Shown: piece by piece, positions 8,992 to 54,935 of the stretch
Layout: each line of letters opens with the position of its first letter
Position numbering within the stretch: position 1 is the stretch's first letter
DNA from: Acidobacteriota bacterium
GTDB lineage: Bacteria > Acidobacteriota > JAAYUB01
Assembly: GCA_017996395.1 (NCBI GenBank)
Contig: JAGOHA010000003.1
Coordinates: 20,427 to 84,426 of the forward strand
DNA length: 64,000 bases
Reading direction: 5' to 3'
Notes under the pieces: model-generated
Database searches by the model: none
Seen by the model: the letters and a program-made list of their open reading frames with translations, nothing else
Told to the model about the DNA's origin: nothing
Made by a program: the position numbers and the translations under genes

Positions 8992-11109
<2,118 letters not shown>

Positions 11110-11254
11110 ATTCGGGACTCCTTGTCTCGACGGTTGCCGCAGGCAGTCCTTAGATCGATTCTCGGCGCCTGTCGATTCAGGTCGCCTGCCGGGCAGGTGA
11201 CGATGTCTTTCAGGGATGGATCAGTCGATCCGGCGGCGGGCAGACCGGGCGGAC

Positions 11255-34502: not shown

Positions 34503-34537
34503 CCTCCGGCCCTCCCGGCCCACCAATCGGATACAGC

Positions 34538-35329: not shown

Positions 35330-35333
35330 TTTC

Positions 35334-36150
35334 ATGATAACGCGCATCCTCTCCGCACTCGTCCTGATTCCCCTGGTCATCGCCGTCGTGTTCTTTGCGC
35401 CGCCCATCGTCTTCAGCGCGGCCGTCACGCTCCTCTGCCTCGTCGCCTTCGGCGAATTCCTGCTATTGCGGGATGGTCGGATGGATCGATCGCCTGGCTT
35501 CTGGCCCACGATGGCCGCCGCCAGTCTCTGCGGATTCGCGGTGGTTCATCCGATGTTCACAGATCATCGCGTGGCCGGTATCGTGGCCTTTTTCATGATT
35601 GCAGGCGTCCTCACCGTCTGGTTCAGCAAACGGAACGAAGAGATCGTCAGCCGGCTGGTTTGGCCGACCGCGGGATTCCTGTACCTGTTCGTGCTTTTCT
35701 CCTTCGTCGTCGACATTCGGTTCGACGTTGATCCCGCCTGCGGCGCCGGCTTGCTCATGGCGTTCCTGCTGATTCAATGGGTGGGCGACACCTTCGCCTA
35801 TTTCACCGGAACCTGGCTGGGCCGCCACCCGCTGGCGCCGCGGATCAGCCCGAAAAAGACCGTCGAAGGCACCATCGGCGGGGTGCTCGGTAGCGCGGGG
35901 GTTGGTTTGGCTGCCTGGTGGTGGCTGCCGCCGTCCCAGCCGCTCTGGCCGCTGCTGCTGCTGGGTGGCGCCGCCGGAGCGTTGGGTCAGGTGGGTGATC
36001 TGCTCGAATCCCAGTTCAAACGCGCGGCGGGAGTCAAGGATTCCTCGCACATTATTCCGGGGCACGGCGGCGTGCTGGACCGGCTGGATTCGTTGATTTT
36101 CACGGCACCGCCCTTTTACTACGCTTTGCAATGGTGCGTCACATCCGGTT

Positions 36151-36167
<17 letters not shown>
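35334..36167 (+). CDS. cdsA: Phosphatidate cytidylyltransferase CdsA
   Basis: C-terminal KRAAGVKDSSHIIPGHGGVLDRLDSL signature. Confidence 0.8.
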
Positions 36168-37344
<1,177 letters not shown>

Positions 37345-37355
37345 GTTGGATATTC

Positions 37356-38675: not shown

Positions 38676-38684
38676 GGCGTCACC

Positions 38685-39761: not shown

Positions 39762-39786
39762 TATCGACAGAACTGGAGGTATCGTC

Positions 39787-40236
39787 GTGCGTGCGGTGGT
39801 TCAGCGCGTGTCGCGAGCCGCGGTGACCGTGGATGGCCGCTGTGTGGGCCAGATCGGCCGCGGGATTCTCCTCTTAGTTGGCATCGGACAAGGCGACACG
39901 AGGGACGACGCCGAGTACATCCTTAACAAAACACTTGAACTTAGAATCTTCAATGATCCTTCAGATAAGATGAATTTATCCATTCAGGAAACCGGCGGCT
40001 CCTTGTTGATCGTGTCGCAGTTCACCCTTTGGGGCGATTGCCGCAAGGGGCGCCGTCCGTCCTACTCGGATGCCATGGAGCCACGGGCGGCCGCTCAATT
40101 GTACGATGAGCTGATCCGTCTGGCCCGCCAGAGTCCTGTCCCGGTGGCCACGGGCGAGTTCCAGGCCATGATGGACGTGGAACTGGTCAACGACGGCCCC
40201 GTCACCCTGCTGCTGGACAGCCGCAAGCAGTTCTGA
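39787..40236 (+). CDS. dtd: D-aminoacyl-tRNA deacylase Dtd
   Basis: GTG start after a GGAGG RBS; VRAVVQRVSRAAVTVDG...SQFTLWGD is typical of Dtd. Confidence 0.75.
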   Translation: MRAVVQRVSRAAVTVDGRCVGQIGRGILLLVGIGQGDTRDDAEYILNKTLELRIFNDPSDKMNLSIQETGGSLLIVSQFTLWGDCRKGRRPSYSDAMEPRAAAQLYDELIRLARQSPVPVATGEFQAMMDVELVNDGPVTLLLDSRKQF

Positions 40237-40493
40237 AGCATCTTCGAGCCTGTACGCCGGATACTCCACTCGAACGAGATGAAGCATGAATCAGCTCTTA
40301 AAGGCAATCAATCCAATCCTTCCGCATGGCAACCCCCCTTGCTCTCAGGAGCCGGCGACGATCCCGGTGTCCGACTTGAATCTGCTCTGTTTTACCTTGC
40401 TTCTCCATGCCATCCCGGCTATCTTCCTGATAAGTTGACCGTTTTTAGTTGGATAGCCTGTCTACTTGCCGGAAGAACTGCGAAGAGAGTCTC

Positions 40494-42005
40494 ATGCCGT
40501 TCACGCTCCTCCTGGCGATGGTATTAAGCATGTCCGGTCTGTCGGCAGTGAATTCATTCTCCACGGTTTCGCTCTCTGCCATCATTTTCACACAACAGGA
40601 TGCCGGCTGCCTGAGCGGCACGCCGGAGAACATCCCACCCCCCCTCGACAATGGCACCATCCCAGCGGCATGCACGGACAAGCTCGTCCGTCCGAACACA
40701 ACCGGCCATCCGGCAGCCAGAGCTGTTTCGACGCCGGCACCATCTGAAGAGTCGCCAACCCGACCCCAGCCGGACCAGAAGGGCGCCTCCGGACCGGAAA
40801 CCAAGGTTGACGAGAACGACAAGCCTCCCACCATTCCGTTCGATTATTCCGGCGACTTCACCCACCGGCCCGTACTGACCGGTGATTGGGATGGAATCCG
40901 CACGAAACTCCTGCAGCATGGCATCCGCATCGATGTGTTGTTTATGCCGATATTACAGGGCAACCTGTCGGGAGGTCTGGTCCAGAAGCCCATGTTCTAC
41001 GGGTCGCTCCGCTACGGCATCGACGTGGACACAGCCACCGCCGGCCTGTGGCGCGGCGGTTCCTGCAGCTTCAAGATCCAGACGGGCTGTGGCCGAAGCG
41101 CCAACGACCAGACCGGCCAGGGGGTGATTAATCAGGTGGACTGGGCCGCCGTCGATGCCGGTGACGGGGATCCACCCACCACGGTGACCGACGCAATTCT
41201 CTTTCAGAAACTGAACGGGTTGTTTTCCGTCGCCGGGGGACGGATCACTTCACGCGATTCCAACGTCTTCGCATCCGACGAAACAACCCAGTTCCTCAAC
41301 GCCGCGTTCAACAACAATCCAGCGTACAACACCACTTTCCCCCGCCAGACGCTGTTCGCTTCGTTGCTGGCTAATCCCGCCCCGTGGTTCACGCTGATCA
41401 CCGCCGTGCTCGATGCCGGTCCGCCGGCCGCCGAGGACAGGCCCGGCACGGATTTCAACCGGGGGATCACCCTGTTCACCTTAACTTCCTTTTCCGTGAA
41501 GACCGCTGAATTACCCGGACACCACCGCCTCGGCGGAACCTGGAGCAACAAGGTCAAGCCCACGCTGGAGGGACTCATCTCTCCGGATCTATACCCGGAT
41601 ACGGTATCCAGCGACTGGGGGCTCAATTACGACTTCGACCAGTTTCTCATGCAAGACCGGAGTTCGCCCAATCGGGGGTTCGGAGTCTTCGGGCGATTCG
41701 GCCTCGGAAATCCGGTCACGAACAAAACGAGCGCGTTCTACAGTTTCGGGCTGGGAGGACGCGGCATGTGGCCCGGCCGTCCGGCAGATTCTTTCGGCGT
41801 CGGGTATTTTTATGATACGACCAGCAAGCGGGTCCCGCCGGAAATCAGGACCTTGCTGCGCAACGAACGGGGGTTCGAGGCTTACTACAATCTGGGCCTG
41901 AAACCCTGGCTCGAGCTCACCCTGGACCTGCAGGTCGTCACGCCGCCCTTGAAGGAGGATGCGCAGGCGGTGGTGGGAGGGGTCAGACTGCTGATCCGGC
42001 TTTGA
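40494..42005 (+). CDS. OprB-family carbohydrate-selective porin with a long low-complexity N-terminal extension
   Basis: Signal peptide MPFTLLLAMVLSMSGLSA; C-terminal beta-barrel ending in the OprB-like GVGYFYD...FEAYYNLGLKPWLELTLDLQVV. Confidence 0.6.
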   Translation: MPFTLLLAMVLSMSGLSAVNSFSTVSLSAIIFTQQDAGCLSGTPENIPPPLDNGTIPAACTDKLVRPNTTGHPAARAVSTPAPSEESPTRPQPDQKGASGPETKVDENDKPPTIPFDYSGDFTHRPVLTGDWDGIRTKLLQHGIRIDVLFMPILQGNLSGGLVQKPMFYGSLRYGIDVDTATAGLWRGGSCSFKIQTGCGRSANDQTGQGVINQVDWAAVDAGDGDPPTTVTDAILFQKLNGLFSVAGGRITSRDSNVFASDETTQFLNAAFNNNPAYNTTFPRQTLFASLLANPAPWFTLITAVLDAGPPAAEDRPGTDFNRGITLFTLTSFSVKTAELPGHHRLGGTWSNKVKPTLEGLISPDLYPDTVSSDWGLNYDFDQFLMQDRSSPNRGFGVFGRFGLGNPVTNKTSAFYSFGLGGRGMWPGRPADSFGVGYFYDTTSKRVPPEIRTLLRNERGFEAYYNLGLKPWLELTLDLQVVTPPLKEDAQAVVGGVRLLIRL

Positions 42006-42041: not shown

Positions 42042-43985
42042 ATGTTCGACAGACTGTTTAGCCCGGTGCGCATCGCCGGACTGGAGATCCGGAACCGCGT
42101 GGCGATGACCCCCATGGGCGTGGGCCTCGCCGCGGTGGGCGGCGGGGTCAGCGACGACATCATCGCCTTCTACGAGGCGCGGGCCCGGGGCGGCATCGGG
42201 CTCATCGTCAGCGAGATCTGCCGGGTCATGGACGGCGCCGGCGCGGGCGAGCCCTGCCAGCTTGCGGCGAGAAACGGGGCCGACATCCAAGGGCTCGGCC
42301 GGATGGTGGATGCGGTGCGCAAGTACGGCGCCCGAATGTTCATCCAGTTGCACCATCCCGGCCGACAGGGCCACCACGAGGTTGGCGGCGAGCAGCCCGT
42401 CTCCGCCTCGGCGGTGGCCAATCCCGTCACGGGGGAAGTTCCCCGCGCCCTGACGGTCCCGGAGATCGGGAAAATCCAGCAGGCTTTCGTGGGCGGGGCC
42501 CGCATCGCCCAAATGGCCGGGGCCGATGGCGTCGAGCTGCACGGCGCGCATGGTTATCTGATCAACGGCTTCCTGTCACCCTATCTCAACCGGCGCGACG
42601 ACCAGTACGGCGGCAGTCTCGAGAACCGCCTGCGGTTTCTGCTGGAGATCGTCGCGGGCATCCGAACGGTCTGCGGAAGAGGGTTCCCGCTTGGCGTCCG
42701 CCTCTCGGCCGAGGAGTTTCTGGGCGACCAGGGGAACGACCTCGCCGCAACGTGCCAAATCGCGGCGGAATTGGAGAAGGCCGGCGTCGACTTCCTCGAC
42801 ATCAGCTGCACCATCCCTGACAGCCCGAAGTTCACCGCTTGCATCGAGCCGGGCACGATCGAACAGGGTTGGAAGAGGTACATGGCCGCGGAGATCAAGA
42901 AACATGTGAAGATCCCGGTCATCGCCGTGGCCAACATCAAGGAGCCGGAAGTCGCGGAGGCGATCCTGGCGGAAGGGTGCTGCGACCTGGTGGGCGTGGC
43001 GCGCGGGCACCTCGCCGACCCCGACTGGTGCCACAAGGCCAAGGCCGGCAAACCGGAAACCATCCGCAAGTGCATCGGCTGCCTCGTCTGCTTCGACGAG
43101 ATCGAACATGCCCGCCACGTCAAGTGCTCCGTCAATCCGACCACGGGCCGCGAACGGGAGTTCGCCCGCCCGGCCCGCGACGGAGCGGGGCGGACAGTGG
43201 CTGTTGTGGGCGGAGGGCCCGCAGGGGTCACGGCCGCCCTGGTACTGCAGGAGCGAGGATTCCGCACTGTGCTGTTCGACCCGTCACCGCGTCTCGGCGG
43301 CACGCTGAACGTAGCCGACAAGGGCGTCGACAAGGAGAAGATCACGCGACTGGTCGACTCCCTGATCGCCCAGGTGCTGGACAGCGGCGTGGAGCTGCGC
43401 CTCGGCGAGGAGGCGACGGTGGAGAAGGTCCAGGCCCTATCCCCCTGTGGCGTGTTCGTCGCCTGTGGTGCCCGGCCGATCGTCCCGCCCATCCCGGGGA
43501 TAGACGGCGAGAATGTCGTCCTCGCCGAAGACGTCCTGACGGGAAGGGCCACGGTCGACGGAGACTGCATAGTGATCGGGTCGGGGATGACCGGCCTTGA
43601 GACGGCGGAGGTGGTCCTCCGCGCCGGGCACAAGACGACGGTGGTGGACATGCTGCCGCAGATCGGCGCCGGCGCGGAGATCATCGTGATCCTCGACGCC
43701 AAGCAGCGGATGGCGCCCTACAACCCGGTCTACCTGCCCGGACACAAGTTGTTGAAAATCAATGAGACCGGTGTCGAACTCGAATGCGTGGAAAGCGGCC
43801 GGACCATCTCCGTCCCTGCGCGCACCGTGATTCTGGCCATGGGCGTCCGTCCCAACCGGGAAGTCGTGGACCGCTTCCGGACCGCCTTCCCTGACGCTCG
43901 GGTCGTCGGCGACGCGGCCCGCGGCGGACGGATCCTGGAAGCGACGCAGGACGCCTATGGCCAGGCGTTCGTGTTTGAACCCTAA
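42042..43985 (+). CDS. Old-Yellow-Enzyme-like FMN oxidoreductase fused to an FAD/NAD(P)-binding domain (2,4-dienoyl-CoA-reductase-like)
   Basis: OYE N-domain (HGAHGYLINGFLSP), 4Fe-4S Cys cluster CIGCLVCFDE, C-terminal Rossmann VAVVGGGPAG. Confidence 0.7.
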   Translation: MFDRLFSPVRIAGLEIRNRVAMTPMGVGLAAVGGGVSDDIIAFYEARARGGIGLIVSEICRVMDGAGAGEPCQLAARNGADIQGLGRMVDAVRKYGARMFIQLHHPGRQGHHEVGGEQPVSASAVANPVTGEVPRALTVPEIGKIQQAFVGGARIAQMAGADGVELHGAHGYLINGFLSPYLNRRDDQYGGSLENRLRFLLEIVAGIRTVCGRGFPLGVRLSAEEFLGDQGNDLAATCQIAAELEKAGVDFLDISCTIPDSPKFTACIEPGTIEQGWKRYMAAEIKKHVKIPVIAVANIKEPEVAEAILAEGCCDLVGVARGHLADPDWCHKAKAGKPETIRKCIGCLVCFDEIEHARHVKCSVNPTTGREREFARPARDGAGRTVAVVGGGPAGVTAALVLQERGFRTVLFDPSPRLGGTLNVADKGVDKEKITRLVDSLIAQVLDSGVELRLGEEATVEKVQALSPCGVFVACGARPIVPPIPGIDGENVVLAEDVLTGRATVDGDCIVIGSGMTGLETAEVVLRAGHKTTVVDMLPQIGAGAEIIVILDAKQRMAPYNPVYLPGHKLLKINETGVELECVESGRTISVPARTVILAMGVRPNREVVDRFRTAFPDARVVGDAARGGRILEATQDAYGQAFVFEP

Positions 43986-44011
43986 TTCAATTGACAGGGA
44001 GTACAACAACC

Positions 44012-44830
44012 ATGAGTGAAACGAAAGACTATTATCGCAACAAGGTCGCCGTCGTGACCGGCGGTGCCTCGGGCGTCGGGCTGGCCCTTGCGGAGACAAT
44101 GCTCGGCTACGAAGCGAGGGGAGTCATCCTCGCGGACGTCAACGATGCCAACCTGGCCCGGGAGACCGCACGCCTGAACACGGCCTATCCCGGACGGGCG
44201 TTGGGGGTCCACTGCGACGTGACTCTGGAGGCCGAAGTTCAGGGGATGATCGCCCAGGCGGCGGAGTTCGGCGGCGGGAGAATCGACCTGCTGTTCAACA
44301 ACGCCGGCGCCGGTTTCGCCGGATATTTCGACCAGTTGTCGAACGCCCACTGGGAGAAGGCGTTCGCGCTGAATTTCTACGGGGCGCTGTACGGCATCCG
44401 CGCCGTGCTGCCGGTGATGCGGGCGCAGGGCGGCGGCCACATCGTGGACGTCATCTCCGGGATCGCGTTCAGCCCGATGGCCCTGCAGTCCATGTACGCC
44501 GCCACGAAGGCCGCCCTGAACGCGCTGACCCTCGCCCTGCGCTACGAGTTCTGGGACGAAAACATCCGCCTGACTTCGACCACGCCGGGCACCACGGCTA
44601 CCGCGATCTGGTCCGCCGGCGGCCAAGAGCCGCCCGCGGGAGCGCAGACGCCCGAGCATTCCGCGCAGACGATCCTCGCCGGCGTGGCGAAGAACCAGCG
44701 GCTGGTTTTCGGCGACGCGGACGATGAGAGGGGCGCCCGTAACTGCTTCAATCCCGATATCGCCGACGGGGTGGACGATTACCTGCTGAACGTGGCCCGA
44801 AAGCGCCGCAGCGGTGAATGGGTCGTTTAG
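44012..44830 (+). CDS. SDR-family oxidoreductase
   Basis: VAVVTGGASGVG...NNAG...YAATKAAL. Confidence 0.75.
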   Translation: MSETKDYYRNKVAVVTGGASGVGLALAETMLGYEARGVILADVNDANLARETARLNTAYPGRALGVHCDVTLEAEVQGMIAQAAEFGGGRIDLLFNNAGAGFAGYFDQLSNAHWEKAFALNFYGALYGIRAVLPVMRAQGGGHIVDVISGIAFSPMALQSMYAATKAALNALTLALRYEFWDENIRLTSTTPGTTATAIWSAGGQEPPAGAQTPEHSAQTILAGVAKNQRLVFGDADDERGARNCFNPDIADGVDDYLLNVARKRRSGEWVV

Positions 44831-44866: not shown

Positions 44867-45736
44867 ATGAAAAACGGCAGTTATTTCATCCCGCGGGAAC
44901 AGCTTCACGCTTTCATGAACCCCGGCGCCATGAACAACGAGGAGGGCCTGTACATCTTCTGGGAGACCGATCCCGCCGTGGCGAGACGCGTGCTGCCTCC
45001 GATGTTGGAGCTGCTGGATCCCGCCCACCCCATCGCCATGGTCTACGTCGTGAACATCCGCGAACCCACCTTCGCGCCCTGGTACATGGAAGGCGGCCTC
45101 AGCCTGCTCTGCCGGTACGGCGAAACCGTCGGCGCCTACTTCCTGAACCTCCAGCTCAGCGGTCCGGGCGCGCACATGGGCCTGTGCAGCGGGCGCGAGA
45201 CCTCCGGGCTACCGAAGAAGATGTGCGAGCGCATCGTGGTCGAGCGCAAAGGCGACTGGGCGCGCGCCTTCATCGAGCGGCACGGCCGGCGAATATTCTC
45301 GACCGAGGTGGAGTTGGGAGACTACAACGACCCCCTTCTGGGAATCATGCGCCAGGACTACAAGCCGGGGTACCAGGAACGGGGCGCCTGCCTGCTGTTC
45401 CAGTACGAATGCGGCCCGGCTCCGGCTGGCCACATGATCATTCCGCAGGCGCGCCTGCTCCATTACGACAGCGTCATCGATTACACGACCTGGGAACCGG
45501 CGCGCATCCAATCGATTCAAATGGAACACTCACTCGACGACCCGTGGGCGGAATTGTTGGTGGTGAAGCTGCTGGGCGCCGGGTACAGCATCAACTCCAA
45601 TTGGGTCGCGGGTCTTTCGACTCTCGCACAATACGACGGGGCGGAGGCCGACAGCCTCTTCTCGTACCTGTTCTCGGGACGCTGGGACCGATCCACGCTC
45701 GTCACCGGCCGTCACCAGATCTACGGGCAGTTCTGA
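44867..45736 (+). CDS. Acetoacetate-decarboxylase (ADC)-family protein
   Basis: Size, and the pattern around ...GLPKKMCERIV..., resemble the ADC superfamily. A lower-confidence family call. Confidence 0.45.
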   Translation: MKNGSYFIPREQLHAFMNPGAMNNEEGLYIFWETDPAVARRVLPPMLELLDPAHPIAMVYVVNIREPTFAPWYMEGGLSLLCRYGETVGAYFLNLQLSGPGAHMGLCSGRETSGLPKKMCERIVVERKGDWARAFIERHGRRIFSTEVELGDYNDPLLGIMRQDYKPGYQERGACLLFQYECGPAPAGHMIIPQARLLHYDSVIDYTTWEPARIQSIQMEHSLDDPWAELLVVKLLGAGYSINSNWVAGLSTLAQYDGAEADSLFSYLFSGRWDRSTLVTGRHQIYGQF

Positions 45737-45756
45737 ACGCTTCCGGAGGACGCATC

Positions 45757-46671
45757 ATGACCATCGACGACATCCGCAAGATCCTGGTGGTGGGCACGGG
45801 AACCATGGGCCAGAAGATCGCCCTGCAGTGCGCCCGCTACGGCTACGAAGTGGTCGCCTACGACGCCGTCCCGAAGTCCCTGGAGAATGCCAAGGCAAGA
45901 ATTCCCGCCTTCGCTGCCGACCTGGTGGCGCGGGGGACAATGAAACCCGAGGAATCCGAAGCCGCCATCGCCCGGATCCGCTACTCCTCCGATCCCCGGG
46001 ACGGGGCGGATGCGGACCTCGTGAGCGAGTCGATCTTCGAGGATCCCGACCTCAAGGCGAAGGTCTTCGCCCAACTCAACGCGGTCTGCAAACCCCAAAC
46101 GGTCTTCACAACCAACACATCCACGCTGTTGCCGTCCATGTACGCCGAAGCTACCGGCCGGCCGGACCGGTTCGCCGCGTTGCATTTCCTGGGCGTGATC
46201 GACCATCGACTCGTGGACATCATGCCCCATCCGGGGACCGCGCCCGAGATCGTGGAACTGCTGACGGCCTTCGCCCGGCGGATCCGGCAGGTCCCGCTGG
46301 TCCTCAAGAAGGAGAATCCCGGCTACGTGTCCAACGCCATCTGGGGTGCCATGAACTCCGCGGCCATCCGGATCTCGCTGGTGGACAAGGTCGCCTCGGT
46401 TGAGGACGTCGACCGGGCGGTCATGATCCACCTCGGCATGCCCTGCGGCCCGTTCGGCCTGAACGACCAGATCGGGCTGGACACCATCTGGCACGTGATG
46501 CAGAGCAATGCCAAGCTGTCGGGTGACCCAGGCGCCCAGGCCTTCGCCGACGAGTTCAAGCGGGACTACATCGACAAGGGCTGGCTGGGGGCCAAGTCCG
46601 GTCGGGGATTCTACACCTACCCCGACCCGGCCTATCTCCACCCCGGTTTTTTAAGCGGCGATCCCGAGTGA
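45757..46671 (+). CDS. 3-hydroxyacyl-CoA dehydrogenase (NAD-binding)
   Basis: ILVVGTGTMGQKIA (Rossmann), NTSTL, C-terminal dimerisation domain. The track ORF starts at 45184; ATG at 45757. Confidence 0.75.
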   Translation: MTIDDIRKILVVGTGTMGQKIALQCARYGYEVVAYDAVPKSLENAKARIPAFAADLVARGTMKPEESEAAIARIRYSSDPRDGADADLVSESIFEDPDLKAKVFAQLNAVCKPQTVFTTNTSTLLPSMYAEATGRPDRFAALHFLGVIDHRLVDIMPHPGTAPEIVELLTAFARRIRQVPLVLKKENPGYVSNAIWGAMNSAAIRISLVDKVASVEDVDRAVMIHLGMPCGPFGLNDQIGLDTIWHVMQSNAKLSGDPGAQAFADEFKRDYIDKGWLGAKSGRGFYTYPDPAYLHPGFLSGDPE

Positions 46672-46698: not shown

Positions 46699-47985
46699 AT
46701 GATGCCCACCACTCGTCCTCAATTCCCGCTCATGCGAAAGCTGCTGGAGGAGGCCGACCTTTCCCTGGAAGTCGTCGTCCTGCTCATCTTCGGAGCGTTC
46801 TTGCTCCTGTTCGGCATCCTCCTGGCGCCGATACATACGGGGATCGTGCCATATAGCCCGGACGGCACCTACGGGCTTTTCCTGGTGCTCGTCTCCTTTC
46901 AGATGATCGCGATGGGTAAGACGCCTTTCGGCGACCTGCGCCGCTCCTGGGCCGCGGTTGCCGGCGGCATGGCCGTTGCGGTCCTGGGCATGTCCCTCTG
47001 TTTCATCCCGGGTTTCCTTACGGGCTTCGCCCGATGGCTGGTCGGATTCGTGCTAACAGCAGGCGGGTTATCCCTCTTTCTGCAGCTGTTGATGGCCCGC
47101 GAGAAGGGGCGGCGGTGGATGGCCGGGCCCGGGATCCTGAAATCGCTCGCTGTCTGTAGTGGCGCGGTATACCTGCTGTTGGCTGCCCTGGGGCTGATCA
47201 CCTTGTGTCCCGGGGCCGTCTCGGACTACGTGACCGCCGGGACCCTCGTCGCCACCGGACTCGGCCTCCTGTCCCTGGCCGGGATTATTCAGCAGATCAT
47301 CCGACGGTGGCCGGAAGCGGATCAGCATCCGACGTTGAAAGGAGTGGCCGTTGCAGAAGATGCGAGGAAAACCCGGAGAGGGCTGTTCGGGGAAGCCAAC
47401 CTCTCTCTCTCGCTGGCGACACTTCTTCTGATGGGAGTCCTGCTGACTCTCCTTGGATTGGTCCTGATACCCGTCAATCTGGGATGGATCCCCTTCTCGC
47501 CCGATGGCTTGCAGGGTCTCCTGCTCACTCTCTTCGCCATCCAGATGATGTCGCTGGGAGACTCTCCGATCGGCCATTACCGGCGGTCGTGGCTGATGGT
47601 CTCCTACGGCATCGCCTTCGTCGGCCTGGGTGCATTCTCCTGCATCGCGCCGGGGGTGCTCACTAGCGTCCTCCGGGCCCTCCTCGCCGTATTGAACCTC
47701 ACGGCCGGGGGCCTTTACTTCGCCAGGCGGCTCCGCCAGAGGATCAAGGAGAGGAAGACCCCGCCGGCAGATCCTCTCCCGCCCATCGTCACCCGGTTGT
47801 TCCGCACGCAGGCGGCGCTGAACATCGCCGTCATCGCGTTCGGAGTCAACATGCTCGTGCCAGGGCTCCTGCCGGGCTTCGTGAATGCTGTGATTATCGT
47901 CGCCAACGGGTTGCTGCTCTTTCAACTGGCCTTCCTCCTGATGATACTGGAGCAAGAGGCGACGCCACGCGATTGCGGATCATGA
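46699..47985 (+). CDS. Polytopic membrane protein of unknown function with an internal tandem duplication (2 x about 5 TM)
   Basis: Repeat 1 ...LLAPIHTGIVPYSPDGTYGLFLVLVSFQMIAMGKTPFGDLRRSW... versus repeat 2 ...LVLIPVNLGWIPFSPDGLQGLLLTLFAIQMMSLGDSPIGHYRRSW... Confidence 0.5.
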   Translation: MMPTTRPQFPLMRKLLEEADLSLEVVVLLIFGAFLLLFGILLAPIHTGIVPYSPDGTYGLFLVLVSFQMIAMGKTPFGDLRRSWAAVAGGMAVAVLGMSLCFIPGFLTGFARWLVGFVLTAGGLSLFLQLLMAREKGRRWMAGPGILKSLAVCSGAVYLLLAALGLITLCPGAVSDYVTAGTLVATGLGLLSLAGIIQQIIRRWPEADQHPTLKGVAVAEDARKTRRGLFGEANLSLSLATLLLMGVLLTLLGLVLIPVNLGWIPFSPDGLQGLLLTLFAIQMMSLGDSPIGHYRRSWLMVSYGIAFVGLGAFSCIAPGVLTSVLRALLAVLNLTAGGLYFARRLRQRIKERKTPPADPLPPIVTRLFRTQAALNIAVIAFGVNMLVPGLLPGFVNAVIIVANGLLLFQLAFLLMILEQEATPRDCGS

Positions 47986-48149: not shown

Positions 48150-48178
48150 TTGAAAATCCGACCGGCATCCACTATAGT
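48150..48178 (+). promoter_or_regulatory. Near-consensus sigma70-type promoter (TTGAAA-N17-TATAGT) upstream of the radical SAM gene
   Basis: Hexamers read directly with a 17-bp spacer. An AAGGAAG RBS follows before the ATG at 48211. Confidence 0.5.
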
Positions 48179-48210: not shown

Positions 48211-49209
48211 ATGCCCCATATCCCTATGAAATACGCGCCGCAGCTGATCTGGCACGGGACGCGGAACTTTTTTTCGGGCCGCCCGGTGGTCATCTCCTTT
48301 GAGACCACCCTCTCCTGCAACGCCAACTGCCGGCATTGCGACATCGAGGGCCACCGCCCTGACGAGGAACGCATGAAACCGGAGGGCTTCCGGAAATTCA
48401 TCGACCAGTTCCACCCGCCGGTGGTCCAGTTGTCCGGCGGCGAGCCGCTCCTCCGGGACGACCTGCTCGATGTGGTTCGGGCCGTCAAGATCAATCCCTT
48501 CTTTCCCTACACTATCCTGGTTTCCAACGGCTCGCTCATGACGCTGGAGCGCTATCGGGCGTTCCGCGAAGCGGGGGTGAACCAGTTCTCCGTTTCGCTG
48601 GATTTTCCCGATTCCCGCCATGATGACTTCCGCCTGATTCCCGGCTTGTACAACATCTTGAACGAGGTGATCCCGCAACTGGCCGCTGAAGGCCACGGCG
48701 ATGTGGTGCTCAACACCGCCATCACCTCGGCGAATGTCGGCGAGCTTGAACCCATCATCCGGACGGCCGACCGCTGGGGTGTTTGCCTGAGCTTCAGCAT
48801 CTACACGCCGCTCCGCACCCAGAATCCCGAGTACGTCGTGAGCAAAGCCGAAGACCTCGACGCCGTGGAGCAGCTGTTTGCGCGTTGCAAGCGGCGCCAG
48901 GGCGTCTATCGCCGGGTGGTGAACTCCCATTACAACCTGGATGGCATCATGCGATTCATGCGCGAGGGCAACATCCCCAACTGCAGCGCCGGCATCCGGT
49001 TCATGGTGGTCCGACCCGAGGGCAAGCTGAACCCCTGTTCACTCCAGCGGATCAATTTCGATACCCAGGATCAATTGGCCCGGGAATTTTCCGCCCACAA
49101 CACCTGCGGCGGCTGCTATGTGTCGATCCGATCATACGTCGAGATCTCGTTCGCTCAACTGTTGTGGGAAAACATCTCGATGCGGGTTTTTAACAGGAAT
49201 ACTATGTGA
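48211..49209 (+). CDS. Radical SAM enzyme with a C-terminal SPASM/twitch-like Cys cluster
   Basis: CNANCRHC (CxxxCxxC), the GGEPLL motif, C-terminal Cys residues (CSAGI...C...CGGCY). Confidence 0.65.
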   Translation: MPHIPMKYAPQLIWHGTRNFFSGRPVVISFETTLSCNANCRHCDIEGHRPDEERMKPEGFRKFIDQFHPPVVQLSGGEPLLRDDLLDVVRAVKINPFFPYTILVSNGSLMTLERYRAFREAGVNQFSVSLDFPDSRHDDFRLIPGLYNILNEVIPQLAAEGHGDVVLNTAITSANVGELEPIIRTADRWGVCLSFSIYTPLRTQNPEYVVSKAEDLDAVEQLFARCKRRQGVYRRVVNSHYNLDGIMRFMREGNIPNCSAGIRFMVVRPEGKLNPCSLQRINFDTQDQLAREFSAHNTCGGCYVSIRSYVEISFAQLLWENISMRVFNRNTM

Positions 49210-49219
49210 GAGGCCGGCA

Positions 49220-49630
49220 GTGCGCATAACTACAACCTGGGACGGCGGCATGGCATTTGTGGCTACGCAGGACGGCCACACCGTCCGTCTGGACGCGTCC
49301 TCCGAGCATGGCGGCCGCAACTCGGGTCCGAGGCCCAAGGGGCTGGTGTTGACCGGACTGGCGGGTTGCACCGGCATGGACGTGGTGAGCATTCTGAACA
49401 AGATGCGGGTGGCATTCACCCGGTTCTCGGTGGAGGTGTCCGGCGAACTGACCGCCGATCACCCAAAGGTCTTCTCCCGGATCCATATTCGGTACGTCCT
49501 GCATGGCCCGAATATCGCGCGCGACAAGGTCGAGAAGGCCGTCGACTTGTCTCAGGAGAAGTACTGCGGGGTCGCGGCGATGTTGCGCAAGGTGTGTCCC
49601 ATCACCCACGAAATCATCATCCAGGACTGA
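49220..49630 (+). CDS. OsmC/Ohr-family protein
   Basis: GTG start. GPRPKGLVLTGLAGCTGMDV and ...EKYCGVAAML are the two conserved Cys motifs of OsmC/Ohr. Confidence 0.7.
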   Translation: MRITTTWDGGMAFVATQDGHTVRLDASSEHGGRNSGPRPKGLVLTGLAGCTGMDVVSILNKMRVAFTRFSVEVSGELTADHPKVFSRIHIRYVLHGPNIARDKVEKAVDLSQEKYCGVAAMLRKVCPITHEIIIQD

Positions 49631-49740
49631 CTCTCCGGGCATTCTGATCATATCCCTTCCAGAAAAAAATTGGTATCGAAGCTGGAAACTTTAAGCTAAA
49701 ATAACCGTCTTTTTTATCGAACTTGATTCTTCGAGGAGAC

Positions 49741-50202
49741 ATGATGAAGAAACTGATCGCCACCGCCCTGATGCTCGTACTGGCCCTATCCATCGCCCCT
49801 CTGGCAGTTATCGGGAAGACAACTATCGCCTTCACGGAATCCGAGTACGCCAAATCACTGAACTTGAAACTGAACCTGCAGAAACCCGATTTGAACGCCT
49901 ACGTTGGCACCGGTAAGGAAATGATCGTGATCAAGACGAAGAAGGAAATCGTGTACTACGAGCGGTTCACCTGGCTGAGCTCGGCCATGCCGGCCGATGA
50001 GGCCATCCGCCATGCCGCCTATCTCAATTTCCTGTCCCAGGCGGCCGATATTCCCAGCGGCACCCCGGAGTATGATCAATTAGCCGCCGCCGTGAAGTCG
50101 AACACCGCTGAATTCATCCTGCGGGGCCTGTTCCAGGTTCGCGTCCGCGCCGAGAACGGCGACAAAGGCGCCAAGCACTTTGTAGAAATCTACGTCAAGT
50201 AA
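49741..50202 (+). CDS. Small secreted hypothetical protein (low-GC gene)
   Basis: Signal peptide MMKKLIATALMLVLALSIAPLAV; AT-rich upstream region; terminator downstream. Confidence 0.5.
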   Translation: MMKKLIATALMLVLALSIAPLAVIGKTTIAFTESEYAKSLNLKLNLQKPDLNAYVGTGKEMIVIKTKKEIVYYERFTWLSSAMPADEAIRHAAYLNFLSQAADIPSGTPEYDQLAAAVKSNTAEFILRGLFQVRVRAENGDKGAKHFVEIYVK

Positions 50203-50204
50203 GA

Positions 50205-51599
50205 TTAGTCATCTTCACGGAGCCGTTCCTTCGGGACGGCTCTTTTTTTTTGCCAGTCAAGTGTCCACGCTCCGAACACCCCGCCGCCGACACAGCCGAA
50301 CCAGACCGCCAGCAGCCAGTTGACTCCGGTGAGGACCGCCCCGAATCCAACCAGAGCACCAGCCAGGCTCAACCCGGCAGCCAATCGGTTACCGATCCGC
50401 ATACTCTGACCGGCCACTGCCAGCAGGAGCAGCGGACTGACAGCCGCGGCATAAATCTGGTAACCCGCCAGAAGCGCCCCGATGATCGACGGATAGATGA
50501 GCGCGGTGGCCAGCGAAATGAGCAACACCAGGGGAACCGCGACGCGCATCCGTCGTCGAAAAGCGTCCCGATCCGGGTGGGCCGGCTCCGGCTTCAGCTC
50601 CATGACCAGGATCGAGGATGCCGTCAGCAGGCAGGTGTCGGCCGACGAAATGACGGCGGCCAGCAAGCCCGCAAGCACCAGGCCTTGTCCCCACTCGGGC
50701 AGCACGGCGACGGTCAGGGACGGCAACAAGGCGTCCCCTGTGGTCAAGGGCAAGACCGCCGCACCGATCACGCCGATGACGGAGATCCAGATGCTGAACG
50801 GGATCAGCAGCGTGCCGCAGGCGATCGCCGCTCGACGGAATGTCACCGCGGTTCGCGCGCAGAGAAATCTGGAAAAAATGTCCGGTCCCGTGGCGAACAG
50901 GATAAAGGTCACCAGAGCCATGGACAGATAATCGCCACTCCTGACAGGGAGGTCGGCGATGAACTCCGTCCAGCGTGCCTGCAACAGCGCGGCTGGCTCT
51001 CCCGCTGCAAGTGCCCGCCAGGCCGCCACCCCCAGCATGGTGATGCCGATGGTCAGCGCACCCAACTGCAGCAGGTCCGTCCGCAACACCGATTTCTGCC
51101 CGCCGGCCGTCACATAAACGCCGAGGAGAAGGGCGGCAATCGCCATCGCCAACCACGCCGGGCAACCCGCCACAGGCCCGACAATCCAGCCGATGGCCAG
51201 CAGTTGGGCGGCGATCACGCCGATCCAGCCCGTCACGATGAGCAGCCCGGACAAGCGCCGGACCAGCGGCCCGTACTGGCACCCCAGATACTCCGGCACC
51301 GTGTAGACCGTCTCGGTCTGTCGAAGTCGTCGCGCGGCCCAACCGGCGGCGATCAGGCCCAGCGCTCCGCCCCACAGCCACGCCGACGCGCCGAAACCGC
51401 TCGTCGCCGCCAGGCCGCAGATTCCCAGTGTTGCCGAGGCGCCGACGATCGTCGCCCCCAGGCTGCCGAAAACCTGCCAGAATGCACCCCGTCGGCCGGC
51501 CACGAAATAATCGTCCGGTCGACGGGAGGCCCGGGCGTGCCAAAGTCCGGCGCCAGCGACCGCCGCCAGGTAAGCGATGATGATGACTGCGCGGACCAA
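50205..51599 (-). CDS. Sodium:solute symporter-like polytopic transporter
   Basis: About 13 predicted TM segments; the N-terminus resembles SSF (FVAGRRGAFWQVFGSLGATIVGASATLG). Confidence 0.55.
   Translation of the reverse strand: MVRAVIIIAYLAAVAGAGLWHARASRRPDDYFVAGRRGAFWQVFGSLGATIVGASATLGICGLAATSGFGASAWLWGGALGLIAAGWAARRLRQTETVYTVPEYLGCQYGPLVRRLSGLLIVTGWIGVIAAQLLAIGWIVGPVAGCPAWLAMAIAALLLGVYVTAGGQKSVLRTDLLQLGALTIGITMLGVAAWRALAAGEPAALLQARWTEFIADLPVRSGDYLSMALVTFILFATGPDIFSRFLCARTAVTFRRAAIACGTLLIPFSIWISVIGVIGAAVLPLTTGDALLPSLTVAVLPEWGQGLVLAGLLAAVISSADTCLLTASSILVMELKPEPAHPDRDAFRRRMRVAVPLVLLISLATALIYPSIIGALLAGYQIYAAAVSPLLLLAVAGQSMRIGNRLAAGLSLAGALVGFGAVLTGVNWLLAVWFGCVGGGVFGAWTLDWQKKRAVPKERLREDD
50219..50251 (+). 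terminator. Rho-independent terminator for the 49741 gene, embedded in the last codons of the convergent minus-strand gene
   Basis: GGAGCCGTTCC-ttc-GGGACGGCTC followed by TTTTTTTTT. Confidence 0.65.
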
Positions 51600-51606
51600 T
51601 CCGGCC

Positions 51607-52965
51607 TCAGGCGTCGGGTTTGTCGCCGGAGGGAGCGCCCACGCCCCCCTTCCGAAGCAGGATGAACAGCCAGTACCCCAAACCGATCACCAACGCCAGA
51701 ATCACAGCGATGAGCACCGTCCGTTCCACCTGTTCCCGGCGGGAGGCGCCCGCCTGGGGGTCGTAGTCAGGATTGCCGGAGACCGCTCCCATGGTAACCT
51801 GGGTACGGGCCTGATCGGCCCAGGCATCGCTGCCGCCAAAACGATCAATGTCGTAATTGGGGGCGCGGACCGAACGGGCGCCCACCATCAGCCGGTACGG
51901 TTGCCGATCGTTGTCAGCCACGAAGAAAATCTCCCGGGTCGGGCTTTCAAATGACAGGGAACGGATTTCCAGTGGCGGGCTGTCGCCATTTTCTATGGCG
52001 ATCCGGTACTGCGCGATACCGGTACCCGGCAGATCCAGATGCAACCGTCGCTCCGGCCGACCGCCCAGCGGGAATGCGCAGATGGTGCCGCTGGCGAAGG
52101 GTTGCCAGCTCCCATCACGGCCGTTCGGGCTGCTTTCAACGGCCACCGTGCGGTAGAAAACCGGCGTGGTCACGTCGAACTGAATCCGACCGGCGGGAAG
52201 GCGCACGGGAATATCGATCACCGTCTGCCGGCTGGCATTCTGAACGGCCGGCACGGGCCGCAGCGGCCAGCGGTCGATGCGGGGGCCTCCGGGTTCCTCC
52301 TGCACCGATCGTCCATGGACGGCGTCGATTCTAAGCTGCTTCGCCCAGCTTCGACTGAAGATGATCTCCAGCCCCGTGGCGGTCACCTGTACGGTGTCAC
52401 GGTTCTCCGGCGCCGCTTCAGAATCCGTGATCCGCAGAACCAGCGCTCGCGCATCGGTGGCGGGAAAATCCACCCGAGTTCGCCGCAGGTCTACGTGAGA
52501 TGAAAAGTCATAAATTGTGTCCTGGCCGATAACGGGGCCGGCTGGATCGTTCGCGATCACCGTGACCTGTTTCCGGAAGTCTCGTTCCGGGATCGTGAAA
52601 TCGATCCCGCTCACGGCGCCTATCGCCTCAGGCACCGTGACGGTCAGCTGAACACTCCCCCTGCTATTTTCGTAGCTGGTGATTGTGAGGGGGGCTTCGG
52701 TTATCTTGGGCTGCAGACGGCTGAAACGGACGACGAATGGAATTTCGCGCCCGTCGGCGTCATACAGACGCATGTCCGCCAGATTGGATTCGCTGCGGGT
52801 CAACAGCTCCAGCGGGAGCGGGATTCGGCAGATGGCGTGCCGCCGGATTGCGCCCCGGATTTCCGCCTGGTATTTGAACTGCTCCACAGTGGGGCTGTCA
52901 ACCTGGGCCATCGTCGCTCCGGCGGCGATCGCCAGCCACACCCCCAACAGCTGATGCCGGCTCAT
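51607..52965 (-). CDS. DUF3999-like protein (signal peptide, C-terminal TM)
   Basis: Starts MSRHQLLGVWLAIAAGATMA. The 940-aa track ORF extends upstream in an artefactual frame. The start overlaps the DUF2339 stop by ATGA. Confidence 0.5.
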   Translation of the reverse strand: MSRHQLLGVWLAIAAGATMAQVDSPTVEQFKYQAEIRGAIRRHAICRIPLPLELLTRSESNLADMRLYDADGREIPFVVRFSRLQPKITEAPLTITSYENSRGSVQLTVTVPEAIGAVSGIDFTIPERDFRKQVTVIANDPAGPVIGQDTIYDFSSHVDLRRTRVDFPATDARALVLRITDSEAAPENRDTVQVTATGLEIIFSRSWAKQLRIDAVHGRSVQEEPGGPRIDRWPLRPVPAVQNASRQTVIDIPVRLPAGRIQFDVTTPVFYRTVAVESSPNGRDGSWQPFASGTICAFPLGGRPERRLHLDLPGTGIAQYRIAIENGDSPPLEIRSLSFESPTREIFFVADNDRQPYRLMVGARSVRAPNYDIDRFGGSDAWADQARTQVTMGAVSGNPDYDPQAGASRREQVERTVLIAVILALVIGLGYWLFILLRKGGVGAPSGDKPDA

Positions 52966-54935
52966 GGTTGTCCCTCCGGTTTGTCCGCATCCGGCCGAGG
53001 CCCCAGGAGCACTTCCTTGTAGCGGTGGTAAAGGTACGACACGCCGACAAGCAACAACCCCAGGACAAAGCATGAAATGATGCGGTAGGGGGTTTTCACT
53101 TCGGCCATGTCCCAGATGAGCACCTTGAGGATCGTCAGGCTGAACAACGCCAGCGACAGCCGACGCAGCGACGGCCGGTTCCACCGGAAACCCAGCAGCA
53201 TGAGCATCACCGAGTACAAGCTCCAGAGCACCGACACCGCAGCAAACCGCCCGGTGGGCAGATAGTCGTAGAAAAACGCGTTGACTTCCAGGTTCAGCAC
53301 GCCGAACAGCAGCACGCTCCAGCCGATTGCGGCCAGGACGGCCAGCGTGTTGCGCAGCGCCTGATGCTCCGGGCGTGGCAGGTAGTACTTGACCAGCCGG
53401 TAAAACAGGATCGTCAGCCCGATGACCACCGCGGCGGACAGCCAGCGGTCCACGGCGCAGCTCATGTAACCGGCCGGGAAACAGAGGCTGTCCAGATCCA
53501 GATCGAAATTGTCGAGATAATCCCAGAGCAGCAGCTTGCCGCCGGCCAGAGTCAGCACACCCGCGCCGGCGAGCTGCAAGGTGGGGCGTCCCAGCCGCAG
53601 TCCCATCCACAGAAGCGCAACCGCCTGGGCCGCCCAGAACACGGTGATCCAATGTTCCGAGAAAATGATGGGCACGGTGATGAACAGAAACAGCATCGCC
53701 TTGGCCAGCAGCACGACGAACGCGCCCACACTCCGCTGGCCCCGCCGCTCCAGAAAGGCGGCCAGTGCGAGGAAGATGAACGCGTACGTCACCGATACAA
53801 CGCTGGCCCAGATACCGTCCGAACGGTCGGCGATGAGCCCATAGCTCACGCTGAAGGCCAGCAAGGAGTTCGGCGTGATGATCAGGAAGCCCCACAGTCG
53901 ATCGATCCGGCCTCGGAAGCACTGGTAAGCGAAGGGCATCAGGGTGTAGATGAGGTAGAAGATGTTTAGGAAAATGATTGCGGGCCAGAACTTCGACGCA
54001 TTGTAGTGGGTGACACCCCAGGCGAAGTAGGTGATGTACGTGAAGATGAAGCCCAGGGCGTTCAGCAAGGCCCACTGCTTGCGGAAGGCGATGACCAGGA
54101 GGCCCAGGTTCAGGACCGTAAGGTAGGTCATCAGGGCGATCTGGTTGTCCTGGCCGGTGCTGAGCAAGAGTGGGGTCAGAAAACCGCCGATCATCGCCAG
54201 GGCCGCCAGCCACTTGTTGTCGTAGACCACTGCCAGGGCACAGCCCAGCGCCGTGATCAGGACCATCACGCCAAAGGCAAGGGCCTGTCCGAACAGCTGG
54301 TAGATCTGGAAACCGGCGAACGTCGCGAAATAGAGGACCGCCACGCCGCCGCCCGCCAGACAGAGCCCGAAAACCCGGTAGCCCCGACGGCGGAAGAGCT
54401 CTCCCGCTCCGAGCAACCCGATCCCCCACAGAAACGCCAGTGCGACCCGGCCGGCCGGACCGATCCAGGCCCGGTCAAAGGAGTATTTCAGAAAGTACCC
54501 CACCGCCAGCACGATGATGATCACTCCGATGGCCAGGATCCACTTCTGACCCAGGCGAACCTCCATCTCCGGCGCCCGGGCGACGGTGCGCGGCGCCTGT
54601 TGCGGGGGGACGGTTGGCGCCGGAGCCGGCTCTGTTTTCGGCTGCTGCTCCGCTGCGGCGGATCGGACTGCGGCGAGCGTCCCGGCTGCCTGAGATTCGG
54701 GCTGAGGTTCGACCGGCGTGGCCACCAGATGCTCGCTCAAAGCCGTGACGCGACCATCGAGCTGGTCCAGATTCTCCCACAACCCGCGGACCTGCTTTCG
54801 GACGACCTGCAGCTGTTGCCGCAGTTCCTGAAAAGCCCGAGCCCGCTCCAGTTCGTCATCCGAAAACCTGTGGCCGCACTGCATGCAGTGCCGGGCCAAT
54901 TCGGCGATGCTCGCATGACATTGGGGGCACTTCAC
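52962..54935 (-). CDS. DUF2339-like polytopic membrane protein with an N-terminal zinc ribbon
   Basis: MKCPQCHASIAELARHCMQCGHRF (CxxC...CxxC), coiled coil, Pro/Ala linker, then about 20 TM helices. Confidence 0.55.
   Translation of the reverse strand: MKCPQCHASIAELARHCMQCGHRFSDDELERARAFQELRQQLQVVRKQVRGLWENLDQLDGRVTALSEHLVATPVEPQPESQAAGTLAAVRSAAAEQQPKTEPAPAPTVPPQQAPRTVARAPEMEVRLGQKWILAIGVIIIVLAVGYFLKYSFDRAWIGPAGRVALAFLWGIGLLGAGELFRRRGYRVFGLCLAGGGVAVLYFATFAGFQIYQLFGQALAFGVMVLITALGCALAVVYDNKWLAALAMIGGFLTPLLLSTGQDNQIALMTYLTVLNLGLLVIAFRKQWALLNALGFIFTYITYFAWGVTHYNASKFWPAIIFLNIFYLIYTLMPFAYQCFRGRIDRLWGFLIITPNSLLAFSVSYGLIADRSDGIWASVVSVTYAFIFLALAAFLERRGQRSVGAFVVLLAKAMLFLFITVPIIFSEHWITVFWAAQAVALLWMGLRLGRPTLQLAGAGVLTLAGGKLLLWDYLDNFDLDLDSLCFPAGYMSCAVDRWLSAAVVIGLTILFYRLVKYYLPRPEHQALRNTLAVLAAIGWSVLLFGVLNLEVNAFFYDYLPTGRFAAVSVLWSLYSVMLMLLGFRWNRPSLRRLSLALFSLTILKVLIWDMAEVKTPYRIISCFVLGLLLVGVSYLYHRYKEVLLGPRPDADKPEGQP

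Follow-up and report, generated by a model that had tools for sequence, protein, structure and literature searches.

The DUF308/HdeD proteins (PF03729), among them the acid-resistance protein HdeD of E. coli, are small and hydrophobic and are made of transmembrane (TM) hairpins. They are one of several described systems that resemble the subject of this study, a membrane protein gene at positions 46699-47985 of a 64,000-nucleotide stretch of contig JAGOHA010000003.1 (assembly GCA_017996395.1) from an Acidobacteriota bacterium, a stretch that we refer to throughout as the window. One half of this protein matches HdeD in size and in number of helices. In contrast to DUF308 proteins, the protein and its homologs form a fused or coupled pair of specialized 6-TM units with loop motifs of their own and a different genomic context, and no relationship is detectable among the hairpins inside one half. 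Secondary transporters with a 6+6 arrangement, such as those of the MFS and MATE groups, share with it the 12 TM helices derived by tandem duplication, the parallel orientation of the halves, the cytoplasmic termini, and an operon setting alongside catabolic enzymes and a porin, but they match it in neither sequence nor fold, and the protein differs from them in its extremely short outer loops and its conserved, beta-hairpin-like cytoplasmic loops. The succinate-acetate permease SatP/AceTr is likewise a six-TM unit, and a weak Foldseek match to one such structure was recovered (5ys8; probability 0.75, TM-score 0.45 on the target). A small carboxylate, as carried by this permease, would also be a plausible substrate for a partner of keto-acid enzymes.

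Two further comparisons concern the enzymes encoded next to this gene. Reductive operons of the bai and FadH types pair a BaiCD/FadH-like ene-reductase with a short-chain dehydrogenase/reductase (SDR) and a membrane protein, as does the bacterial version of the gene set described here. Unlike those operons, this gene set scores far below the cut-offs of the corresponding families, lacks genes for a coenzyme A (CoA) ligase, a CoA transferase and a dehydratase, and includes a gene for a lyase resembling acetoacetate decarboxylase (ADC), while its archaeal versions have no ene-reductase at all. The structure 3CMB in the PDB is related to this ADC-like lyase, a soluble partner, and not to the membrane protein, and the Schiff-base lysine motif of the lyase is kept between them.

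The membrane protein gene and its two repeat units are as follows.

46699..47985, + strand: membrane protein gene, 428 aa, 12 predicted TM helices (6+6) and both termini cytoplasmic, based on the open reading frame (ORF), an AlphaFold2 model and the charge distribution
46750..47316, + strand: N-terminal 6-TM repeat unit, residues 18-206, with the motif G-x-(V/L)PY-x-PD...Q-x3-MGKTPFGDLRRSW, based on half-versus-half alignments and invariant residues
47392..47970, + strand: C-terminal 6-TM repeat unit, residues 232-424, with the motif G-x-IPFSPDG...Q-x3-LGD(S/T)P-x-G-x-(Y/F)(R/K)RSW, based on half-versus-half alignments, and a gene of its own in split forms

A preliminary description of the window had proposed this ORF and had read from a shared motif that its two halves arose by tandem duplication, and both claims held. 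Residues 1-215 and 216-428 are 39% identical over 148 aa in BLASTP (E=4e-25), and profiles of the two halves, taken from an alignment of 30 homologs, align with each other over all 189 columns at a probability of 99.9% in hhalign (E=4e-34). Each half contains three helical hairpins, and cognate N/C partners match at 97-99%, while non-cognate hairpin profiles reach a probability of 14.5% or less, so that no deeper threefold repeat within each half and no repeated two-helix units of the DUF308 kind were detectable by hhalign. We therefore rejected a threefold hairpin repeat. Because the half-profiles align throughout and the hairpins match only their counterparts, the duplication is real and ancient and spans the whole 6-TM unit. 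The motif quoted in the preliminary description is present in both halves and largely invariant in the 30 homologs, its final spacing being (F/I)G-x2-RRSW where three residues had been given.

The initial count of 10 TM helices has to be revised to 12 (6+6), as given by both the hydrophobic segments and an AlphaFold2 model built from the 30-homolog alignment, which is of medium confidence (mean pLDDT 73.9, pTM 0.75). The modeled helices span residues 23-47, 54-71, 84-102, 108-132, 146-169 and 176-203 in the first half and 237-260, 268-285, 298-316, 322-353, 362-386 and 393-421 in the second. Lysine and arginine concentrate in alternate loops, with a family average of 2-4 per loop in the predicted cytoplasmic loops versus about 0 in the outer loops, which indicates that both termini are cytoplasmic and that the repeats are parallel. 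An inverted or parallel-repeat fold had been envisaged, and of these only the parallel form agrees with the positive-inside rule; the inverted form was rejected because both halves begin from the cytoplasmic side. The protein consequently has two homologous 6-TM halves of the same orientation, a statement about architecture and not about membership of a homology family. The outer loops are very short across the family, at 5-7 residues.

Conservation is concentrated toward the cytoplasm. Invariant positions number 61 in the 30 homologs; cytoplasmic loops hold 14 of them, and a further nine fall within the third of a helix nearest the cytoplasm. These include a cluster of polar and charged residues on the cytoplasmic side, composed of E24, Q68, K74, T75, D79, R82, S83, Q129 and W140 together with Q282, R296 and S297 of the second repeat. 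Invariant polar residues within TM helices or at their ends are E24, Q68, Q129, Y158 and Q282. The two signature loops, MGKTPFGDLRRSW and LGD(S/T)PxGxY(R/K)RSW, face the cytoplasm and are modeled as low-confidence, beta-hairpin-like turns.

No family had been recognized by eye for this protein, and profile searches agree, as it has no Pfam or NCBIfam match at E<=0.1. When the threshold is relaxed to E<=1, it matches DUF308 (PF03729) over residues 304-351 only, at 11.9 bits (E=0.28; gathering score 25), and although similarly weak matches to PF03729 occur in 27 of 30 family members (best E=4e-7), comparison of the family profile with the E. coli HdeD sequence gave an hhalign probability of just 1.5%. 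We set aside membership of DUF308/HdeD as improbable on account of this sub-threshold match and insignificant profile comparison. No significant sequence or fold similarity was found to known transporter superfamilies (MFS, MATE/MOP, APC, ClC and others), and Foldseek found no match to the fold in the PDB (best E=0.075; no TM-score above 0.23 on the query). In an exhaustive hidden Markov model search of 1.84 billion representative proteins, 252 sequences were recovered at E<=1e-3, many of them fragments, and among the 150 best representatives there were no fusions to soluble domains and none longer than 447 aa. The protein therefore belongs to a new, uncharacterized family that is set apart from known ones.

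Homologs at about 45-60% identity are found in bacteria (Acidobacteriota, Desulfomonilaceae, Syntrophobacteraceae, Smithella and a few others) and in archaea (Methanobacterium, Methanothermobacter, Methanospirillum, Methanoregula, Methanolinea, Methanosphaerula, Methanoculleus, Methanofollis, Methanothrix and Bathyarchaeia). Conservation across the two domains is very high, with a mean column identity of 67%. Archaeal and bacterial clades are interleaved in a neighbor-joining tree of the protein, a pattern that would fit repeated transfer between the domains among anaerobes sharing a habitat. The nearest relatives are two Acidobacteriota contigs, labeled L005 and L133 in our set of loci, in which the protein is 77-86% identical and the neighboring genes are 85-98% identical to those of the window.

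Of the 84 loci, 27 do not encode the homolog as a single ORF. About 22 of the 27 have an overlap of the N-half stop codon with the C-half start codon, reading ATGA or GTGA, with a GGAGG-like sequence ahead. Such overlaps occur in several cultured Methanoculleus species and in some Methanospirillum, Methanofollis and Methanoregulaceae (examples are L062-L084; in L062 the half-genes lie at 9989-10624 and about 10621-11229). The junction is TAAATG in two further loci, L006 and L054, and four of the loci without a single ORF resemble assembly errors. Two independent contigs carry a more divergent pair of half-genes, 9 bp apart and with an SDR gene nearby; its first gene resembles the N-half of the window protein (E=3e-27) and its second the C-half (E=5e-15). 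As the split halves are translationally coupled by the ATGA or GTGA overlap, a 1:1 assembly is implied, in which the functional unit would be a pair of two specialized 6-TM modules. Fusion or fission has happened more than once. At one locus with the divergent pair (L086), the half-genes are flanked by genes for a Bac_luciferase-family oxidoreductase, possibly F420- or FMN-dependent, and for an SDR, at 2943-3902 and 4258-5079, and no ADC-like gene lies within the 6.7 kb available there.

In the window, the membrane protein gene is predicted to be the last gene of a six-gene operon, in which the gaps between genes are 5-36 bp. The five genes upstream of it are listed here.

40449..42005, + strand: OprB-family outer-membrane porin, first of the six genes (Pfam PF04966, E=2e-36)
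42042..43985, + strand: Fe-S flavoenzyme (OYE) resembling FadH, BaiCD and 2-naphthoyl-CoA reductase (Pfam Oxidored_FMN and Pyr_redox_2)
43991..44830, + strand: SDR (Pfam adh_short, E=4e-43)
44867..45736, + strand: ADC-like protein (acetoacetate-decarboxylase superfamily) of the bacterial subtype (Pfam PF06314, E=2e-36; lysine motif G-R-E-x-x-G-x-P-K)
45757..46671, + strand: gene of the 3-hydroxyacyl-CoA dehydrogenase family (3HCDH, HCDH; Pfam 3HCDH_N and 3HCDH), start inferred from homologs, ending 27 bp upstream of the membrane protein gene

To compare this arrangement with those of other genomes, the loci of 80 species representatives and four exact look-ups were collected, and neighbors within 5 kb were tabulated. 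All ORFs were called and clustered without prior labels, and the main clusters were named by Pfam. The counts below, which rest on our ORF calling and BLAST clustering of loci derived from metagenome-assembled genomes, refer to the 46 species-level loci whose flanks reach at least 4 kb in each direction and which span Methanobacteriales, Methanomicrobiales, Bathyarchaeia, Desulfomonilaceae, Syntrophobacteraceae, Smithella and Acidobacteriota. An SDR gene is the commonest partner, being near the membrane gene in 40 of the 46 loci, and the ADC-like gene (PF06314) follows in 36. Both are present in 35 loci and at least one of them in 41. Bacterial loci usually add a 3HCDH-family gene (16/19) and the FadH-like Fe-S flavoenzyme (14/19), while the archaeal loci lack the ene-reductase; an APH-family kinase gene adjoins the membrane gene in 8 of 27 archaeal loci, belonging to some Methanomicrobiales. 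The cluster likewise begins with an OprB gene in L003, L005 and L133, and in L002 such a gene adjoins the membrane gene directly upstream (Pfam). As a reverse test, we searched metagenomes with the ADC-like gene as the seed. Of the resulting 79 loci, 12 had flanks of at least 4 kb, and all 12 of these contained OYE and SDR genes, while nine contained the membrane gene. It is the sole polytopic membrane protein of the gene set.

The order of these genes differs among lineages. With the membrane gene written as MEM, we observed ADC>SDR>MEM in Methanobacterium, SDR<ADC<|MEM> in Methanoculleus, MEM>ADC>SDR in Methanoregula and its relatives, MEM>OYE>SDR>ADC>HCDH in Desulfomonilaceae, and OprB>OYE>SDR>ADC>HCDH>MEM in Acidobacteria including the window, in addition to OYE>ADC>SDR><MEM and other arrangements. 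This shuffling suggests that the linkage is held by selection and not by common descent of one arrangement. Genes of the ADC family are rare and SDR genes are common, so that adjacency to an SDR gene is weaker evidence than adjacency to an ADC-like gene. Because the rare ADC-family gene stays with the membrane gene in bacteria and archaea alike and in many different arrangements, we regard this strong linkage as the signature of a predicted functional module. Full-text literature searches on ADC and DUF308, ADC-like genes of methanogens, 3CMB, the ADC-like superfamily and the function of DUF308 returned no published description of this module.

Some variation surrounds this core. A gene for an APH-family phosphotransferase (PF01636, about 268 aa) adjoins the membrane gene in Methanoregula, Methanospirillum and related genomes (L024, L038, L040, L042, L044-L050, L056, L060, L061, L069 and L082), sometimes without a nearby SDR or ADC-like gene, which suggests a variant of the module. 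In L104, a gene for an AraC-family regulator (3591-4583) lies just upstream of an OYE-SDR-ADC cluster that has no membrane gene. Such a regulator in an upstream position is typical of substrate-inducible catabolic operons. In the window itself, a block of housekeeping genes on the + strand (33249-40236) is found directly upstream of oprB, encoding an S41 peptidase, uppS, cdsA, dxr, rseP (M50 and PDZ), ispG and dtd, and the oprB-headed module looks like a discrete insertion beside these conserved core genes. The 3HCDH-family gene had been listed as an ORF at 45184-46671 (495 aa, GTG start). This ORF is over-extended, since 304-aa homologs place the start near 45757 (MTIDDIRK...), and the surplus part overlaps the ADC-like gene in another frame, an artifact of GC-rich sequence.

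The enzymes of the module have relatives with described reactions, and their scores fall below the cut-offs of the specific families. The OYE protein is nearest to 6qkg and 1ps9 in the PDB (E of about 1e-75), which are 2-naphthoyl-CoA reductase and 2,4-dienoyl-CoA reductase; it reaches 449.6 bits against a cut-off of 825 for the NCBIfam BaiCD model and is likewise below the cut-off of the bilirubin reductase model. The 3HCDH-type protein scores 289.9 bits with NCBIfam PRK08293 (cut-off 312), and its nearest PDB entry is the diketoreductase 4dyd (E=3e-46). The linked SDRs are of a long classical type of about 280 aa with a C-terminal extension. They received no specific assignment, as all matches were far below the cut-offs, and archaeal and bacterial members are about 30% identical to each other.

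Among the ADC-like partners there are two subtypes, about 19% identical to each other. The Schiff-base lysine motif G-R-E-x-x-G-x-P-K is invariant in 25 sequences drawn from both, and it aligns with GGREIWGFPKK of 3c8w. In the same alignment, the positions under NREF, FEF and YTES of 3c8w are not conserved in the ADC-like profile. These positions correspond to Arg29, Glu61 and Glu76, the further residues on which acetoacetate decarboxylation by the clostridial enzyme depends. Scores against the NCBIfam model for true acetoacetate decarboxylases (NF002614) were 27.8 and 45.5 bits, with a cut-off of 150. These proteins are probably better described as putative lysine-Schiff-base lyases of unassigned reaction. 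We also considered that the module might serve ketone-body metabolism, with a 3-hydroxybutyrate dehydrogenase (the archaeal SDR matches PHB_DH among many other models) acting beside an acetoacetate decarboxylase, but judged this to be weak because the SDR matches are far below the cut-offs and the ADC-like proteins lack the catalytic residues other than the lysine. The archaeal subtype in the Methanoculleus loci is essentially 3CMB (E=7e-127), a methanogen "acetoacetate decarboxylase" deposited by the structural-genomics center JCSG, unpublished and with no assigned function. It forms a tetramer with the double-barrel ADC fold (PMC2954204). PADLOC models of defense systems gave no match for the membrane, ADC-like, SDR or 3HCDH proteins. 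For the OYE protein and for the radical SAM protein encoded downstream (see below), the only matches were trivial ones of the Rossmann-fold or generic radical SAM kind. Membership of a defense system was rejected for lack of meaningful PADLOC matches.

Downstream of the membrane gene in the window lies a second group of genes, whose features are listed here.

48211..50202, + strand: radical SAM/OsmC/small-protein unit, independent of the module (Pfam, NCBIfam, ORFs and neighbor comparison)
48150..48178, + strand: promoter-like site in the 225-bp gap after the membrane gene, with 10/12 consensus matches, weakly supported since it comes from a scan that as a whole is not enriched over shuffled sequences
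48211-49209, + strand: radical SAM gene
about 49250-49630, + strand: OsmC-like gene
49723-50202, + strand: small protein with a signal-peptide-like N-terminus (MKKLIATALMLVLALSIAPLAVIG...), without a Pfam or NCBIfam family
50219-50243: strong terminator-like hairpin with a T-run, 3' of the small-protein gene

The preliminary description had pointed to these genes as possible partners of the membrane protein. The radical SAM, OsmC-like and small signal-peptide-like proteins are all present as described, except that the SPASM domain assigned to the first was not detected by Pfam and appears in NCBIfam solely as SPASM-type matches below cut-off. The implied link did not withstand comparison across genomes, as the two groups of genes are adjacent in only 2 of the 46 loci, namely the window and L005, and in one of the 12 ADC-seeded loci, which is the near-identical relative L133 and the sole one with radical SAM and OsmC genes. 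At E<=1e-10 the family of the radical SAM protein has 2,331 matches and is roughly tenfold larger than the membrane family. Its members at 66% and 59% identity have the OsmC gene directly downstream in unrelated surroundings without the membrane gene, and in a relative at 49% identity OsmC has gone as well. Because the pair recurs without the membrane gene, is separated from it by the 225-bp gap with its promoter-like site, and is followed by the terminator-like hairpin after the small-protein gene, we conclude that the radical SAM and OsmC genes, with or without the small protein, are a unit independent of the membrane gene. For annotation, this means that the adjacent radical SAM gene should not guide inference of the function of the membrane protein.

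The radical SAM/OsmC pair is kept in Acidobacteriota-type genomes (48211-49630 in the window, 5001-6521 in L168 and 5001-6441 in L169), and in L169 it follows just after nifU- and nifS-like genes. The radical SAM protein has a CxxxCxxC motif at residues 36-43, and the NCBIfam matches of the pair are all far below the cut-offs. The small protein is kept in the closest relatives only, at 53% identity in L005 and 92% in L133. Further downstream, the minus strand (51607-54935) encodes a DUF2339 membrane protein (52962-54935) with an N-terminal zinc-ribbon-like UPF0547 match, and then a DUF3999 protein.

A 6+6 architecture is typical of secondary transporters. Given this architecture, the polar residues in or at the ends of helices, the lack of any other transporter in the module, and the pairing with a porin, we tentatively suggest that the membrane protein serves the module as its own permease or channel, which would carry a small polar carbonyl compound, the substrate or product of the module. 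We consider this reading a realistic possibility while stopping short of calling it probable. The two homologous 6-TM units, fused or made from two coupled genes, would act as a pseudo-heterodimer in a bundle of 12 TM helices. In the diderm host of the window, the substrate, perhaps a keto or hydroxy acid or something similar, would first pass the outer membrane via the OprB porin, and the substrate or the product would then cross the cytoplasmic membrane through the membrane protein. In the cytoplasm, the compound would undergo ene-reduction, keto/hydroxy redox steps and Schiff-base chemistry of the decarboxylase or aldolase type, carried out by the ene-reductase, the SDR, the Schiff-base lyase and the 3HCDH-type enzyme. 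In genomes with an APH kinase, phosphorylation by that kinase could trap the substrate following uptake. The module would be a horizontally shared one; its core consists of the SDR and the ADC-like lyase, to which bacteria add the ene-reductase and the 3HCDH-type enzyme, the lineage of the window the OprB porin, and some Methanomicrobiales the APH kinase.

Several observations weigh against transport. No similarity to any transporter family was found in our sequence and Foldseek searches, and three well-flanked loci contain the OYE, ADC-like and SDR genes without the membrane gene and without any other transporter replacing it, which indicates that the enzymes do not strictly need the membrane gene nearby. 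We examined whether a known transporter takes the place of the membrane gene in loci that lack it; none did, and this displacement test provides support neither way. Much of the strongest conservation lies in two cytoplasmic loops, MGKTPFGDLRRSW and its repeat, which could equally dock soluble enzymes, and the conservation of the cytoplasmic face as a whole would be explained about as well by a docking scaffold or by a membrane enzyme acting at the interface. Since the ADC-like subtypes are only about 19% identical and the archaeal and bacterial SDRs about 30%, the substrate may also differ between types of the module. The structural model is itself of medium confidence.

The same observations lend themselves to other explanations. 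If the protein were a scaffold or anchor that draws the soluble SDR and ADC-like oligomers to the membrane on its cytoplasmic side, where they would act on a lipophilic or membrane-partitioned substrate with no transport taking place, then the 14 invariant positions in cytoplasmic loops and nine in cytoplasmic helix thirds, including the polar and charged cluster, would mark the docking surface. The outer loops of a mere 5-7 residues, the long SDRs of about 280 aa with their C-terminal extension, the lack of a substitute transporter in loci without the membrane gene, and the failure to find transporter homology would all agree with such a role. Specific docking is hard to reconcile with partners that diverge to about 19% (ADC-like) and 30% (SDR) identity while the supposed docking loops stay near-invariant, no fusion to a soluble domain was seen among the 150 best representatives (all of 447 aa or less), and a porin gene within the operon points to a substrate that is soluble in water, so we consider a scaffold unlikely. 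A membrane-embedded enzyme (an isomerase, hydrolase or transferase) that carries out one step of the same pathway at the cytoplasmic interface would account for the invariant charged and polar constellation at the membrane-cytoplasm interface in both repeats, for a mean column identity of 67% between domains, and for a fold that has no match in the PDB. We think that this is quite improbable, as the protein shows none of the metal-binding or nucleophile motifs that known polytopic enzymes typically carry, the presence of the same loop motif in both repeats implies two pseudo-equivalent sites, and no homology to enzyme families was found.

Other explanations would make the enzymes incidental or look to different partners. 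The weak PF03729 matches in 27 of 30 members (best E=4e-7), the labeling of some database entries as DUF308/HdeD, and the size of each half (about 190-200 aa with six TM helices, as in HdeD) would fit a generic stress membrane protein of the HdeD type that happens to lie among enzyme genes. Against this, the window protein scores 11.9 bits where 25 are required, the hhalign comparison with E. coli HdeD stands at 1.5%, the profile search recovers only 252 representatives without reaching into the large DUF308 family, and the rare ADC-like gene accompanies it in 36 of 46 loci from both domains, far more often than by chance, which together leave this explanation very unlikely. The idea that the protein is an exporter, immunity protein or substrate carrier for the radical SAM/OsmC/small-protein genes draws on same-strand adjacency in the window and in its close relatives L005 and L133; we consider it to be effectively refuted by the rarity of that adjacency (2/46 and 1/12 loci), by the recurrence of the pair without the membrane gene in a family some ten times larger, and by the gap with a promoter-like site between the units and the terminator beyond the small-protein gene. 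Of the two outcomes on which the preliminary description would have given up a new family tied to the radical SAM gene, one was observed, as there is no linkage to that gene, and the other was not, as no well-characterized transporter family could be assigned.

A bolder version of the permease or channel proposal is that the family represents a new class of 6+6 TM solute channel or permease, consisting of one chain or of two coupled half-chains and feeding an uncharacterized pathway of Schiff-base lyase and SDR that hydrogenotrophic methanogens and the syntrophic or anaerobic bacteria around them have repeatedly passed to one another. We regard this version as unlikely. If it were true, many methanogens that are held to be strictly dependent on H2 or formate could import a particular organic carbonyl compound and convert it, using it as an auxiliary electron donor or detoxifying it.

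What is new here is a previously undescribed gene-neighborhood partnership that crosses the boundary between bacteria and archaea, although its kind is familiar, namely a putative membrane component of a metabolic operon. If the proposed role as a permease or channel holds, the protein would represent a new membrane-protein family without a solved or annotated relative and with a concrete, testable partnership. The genomic linkage also gives context to 3CMB, an orphan entry from structural genomics. Identity of about 50% between methanogens and the syntrophic or anaerobic bacteria of the same habitats points to a selectable and transferable trait in methanogenic communities, and it is a hint that hydrogenotrophic methanogens may possess an unrecognized pathway for an organic compound.

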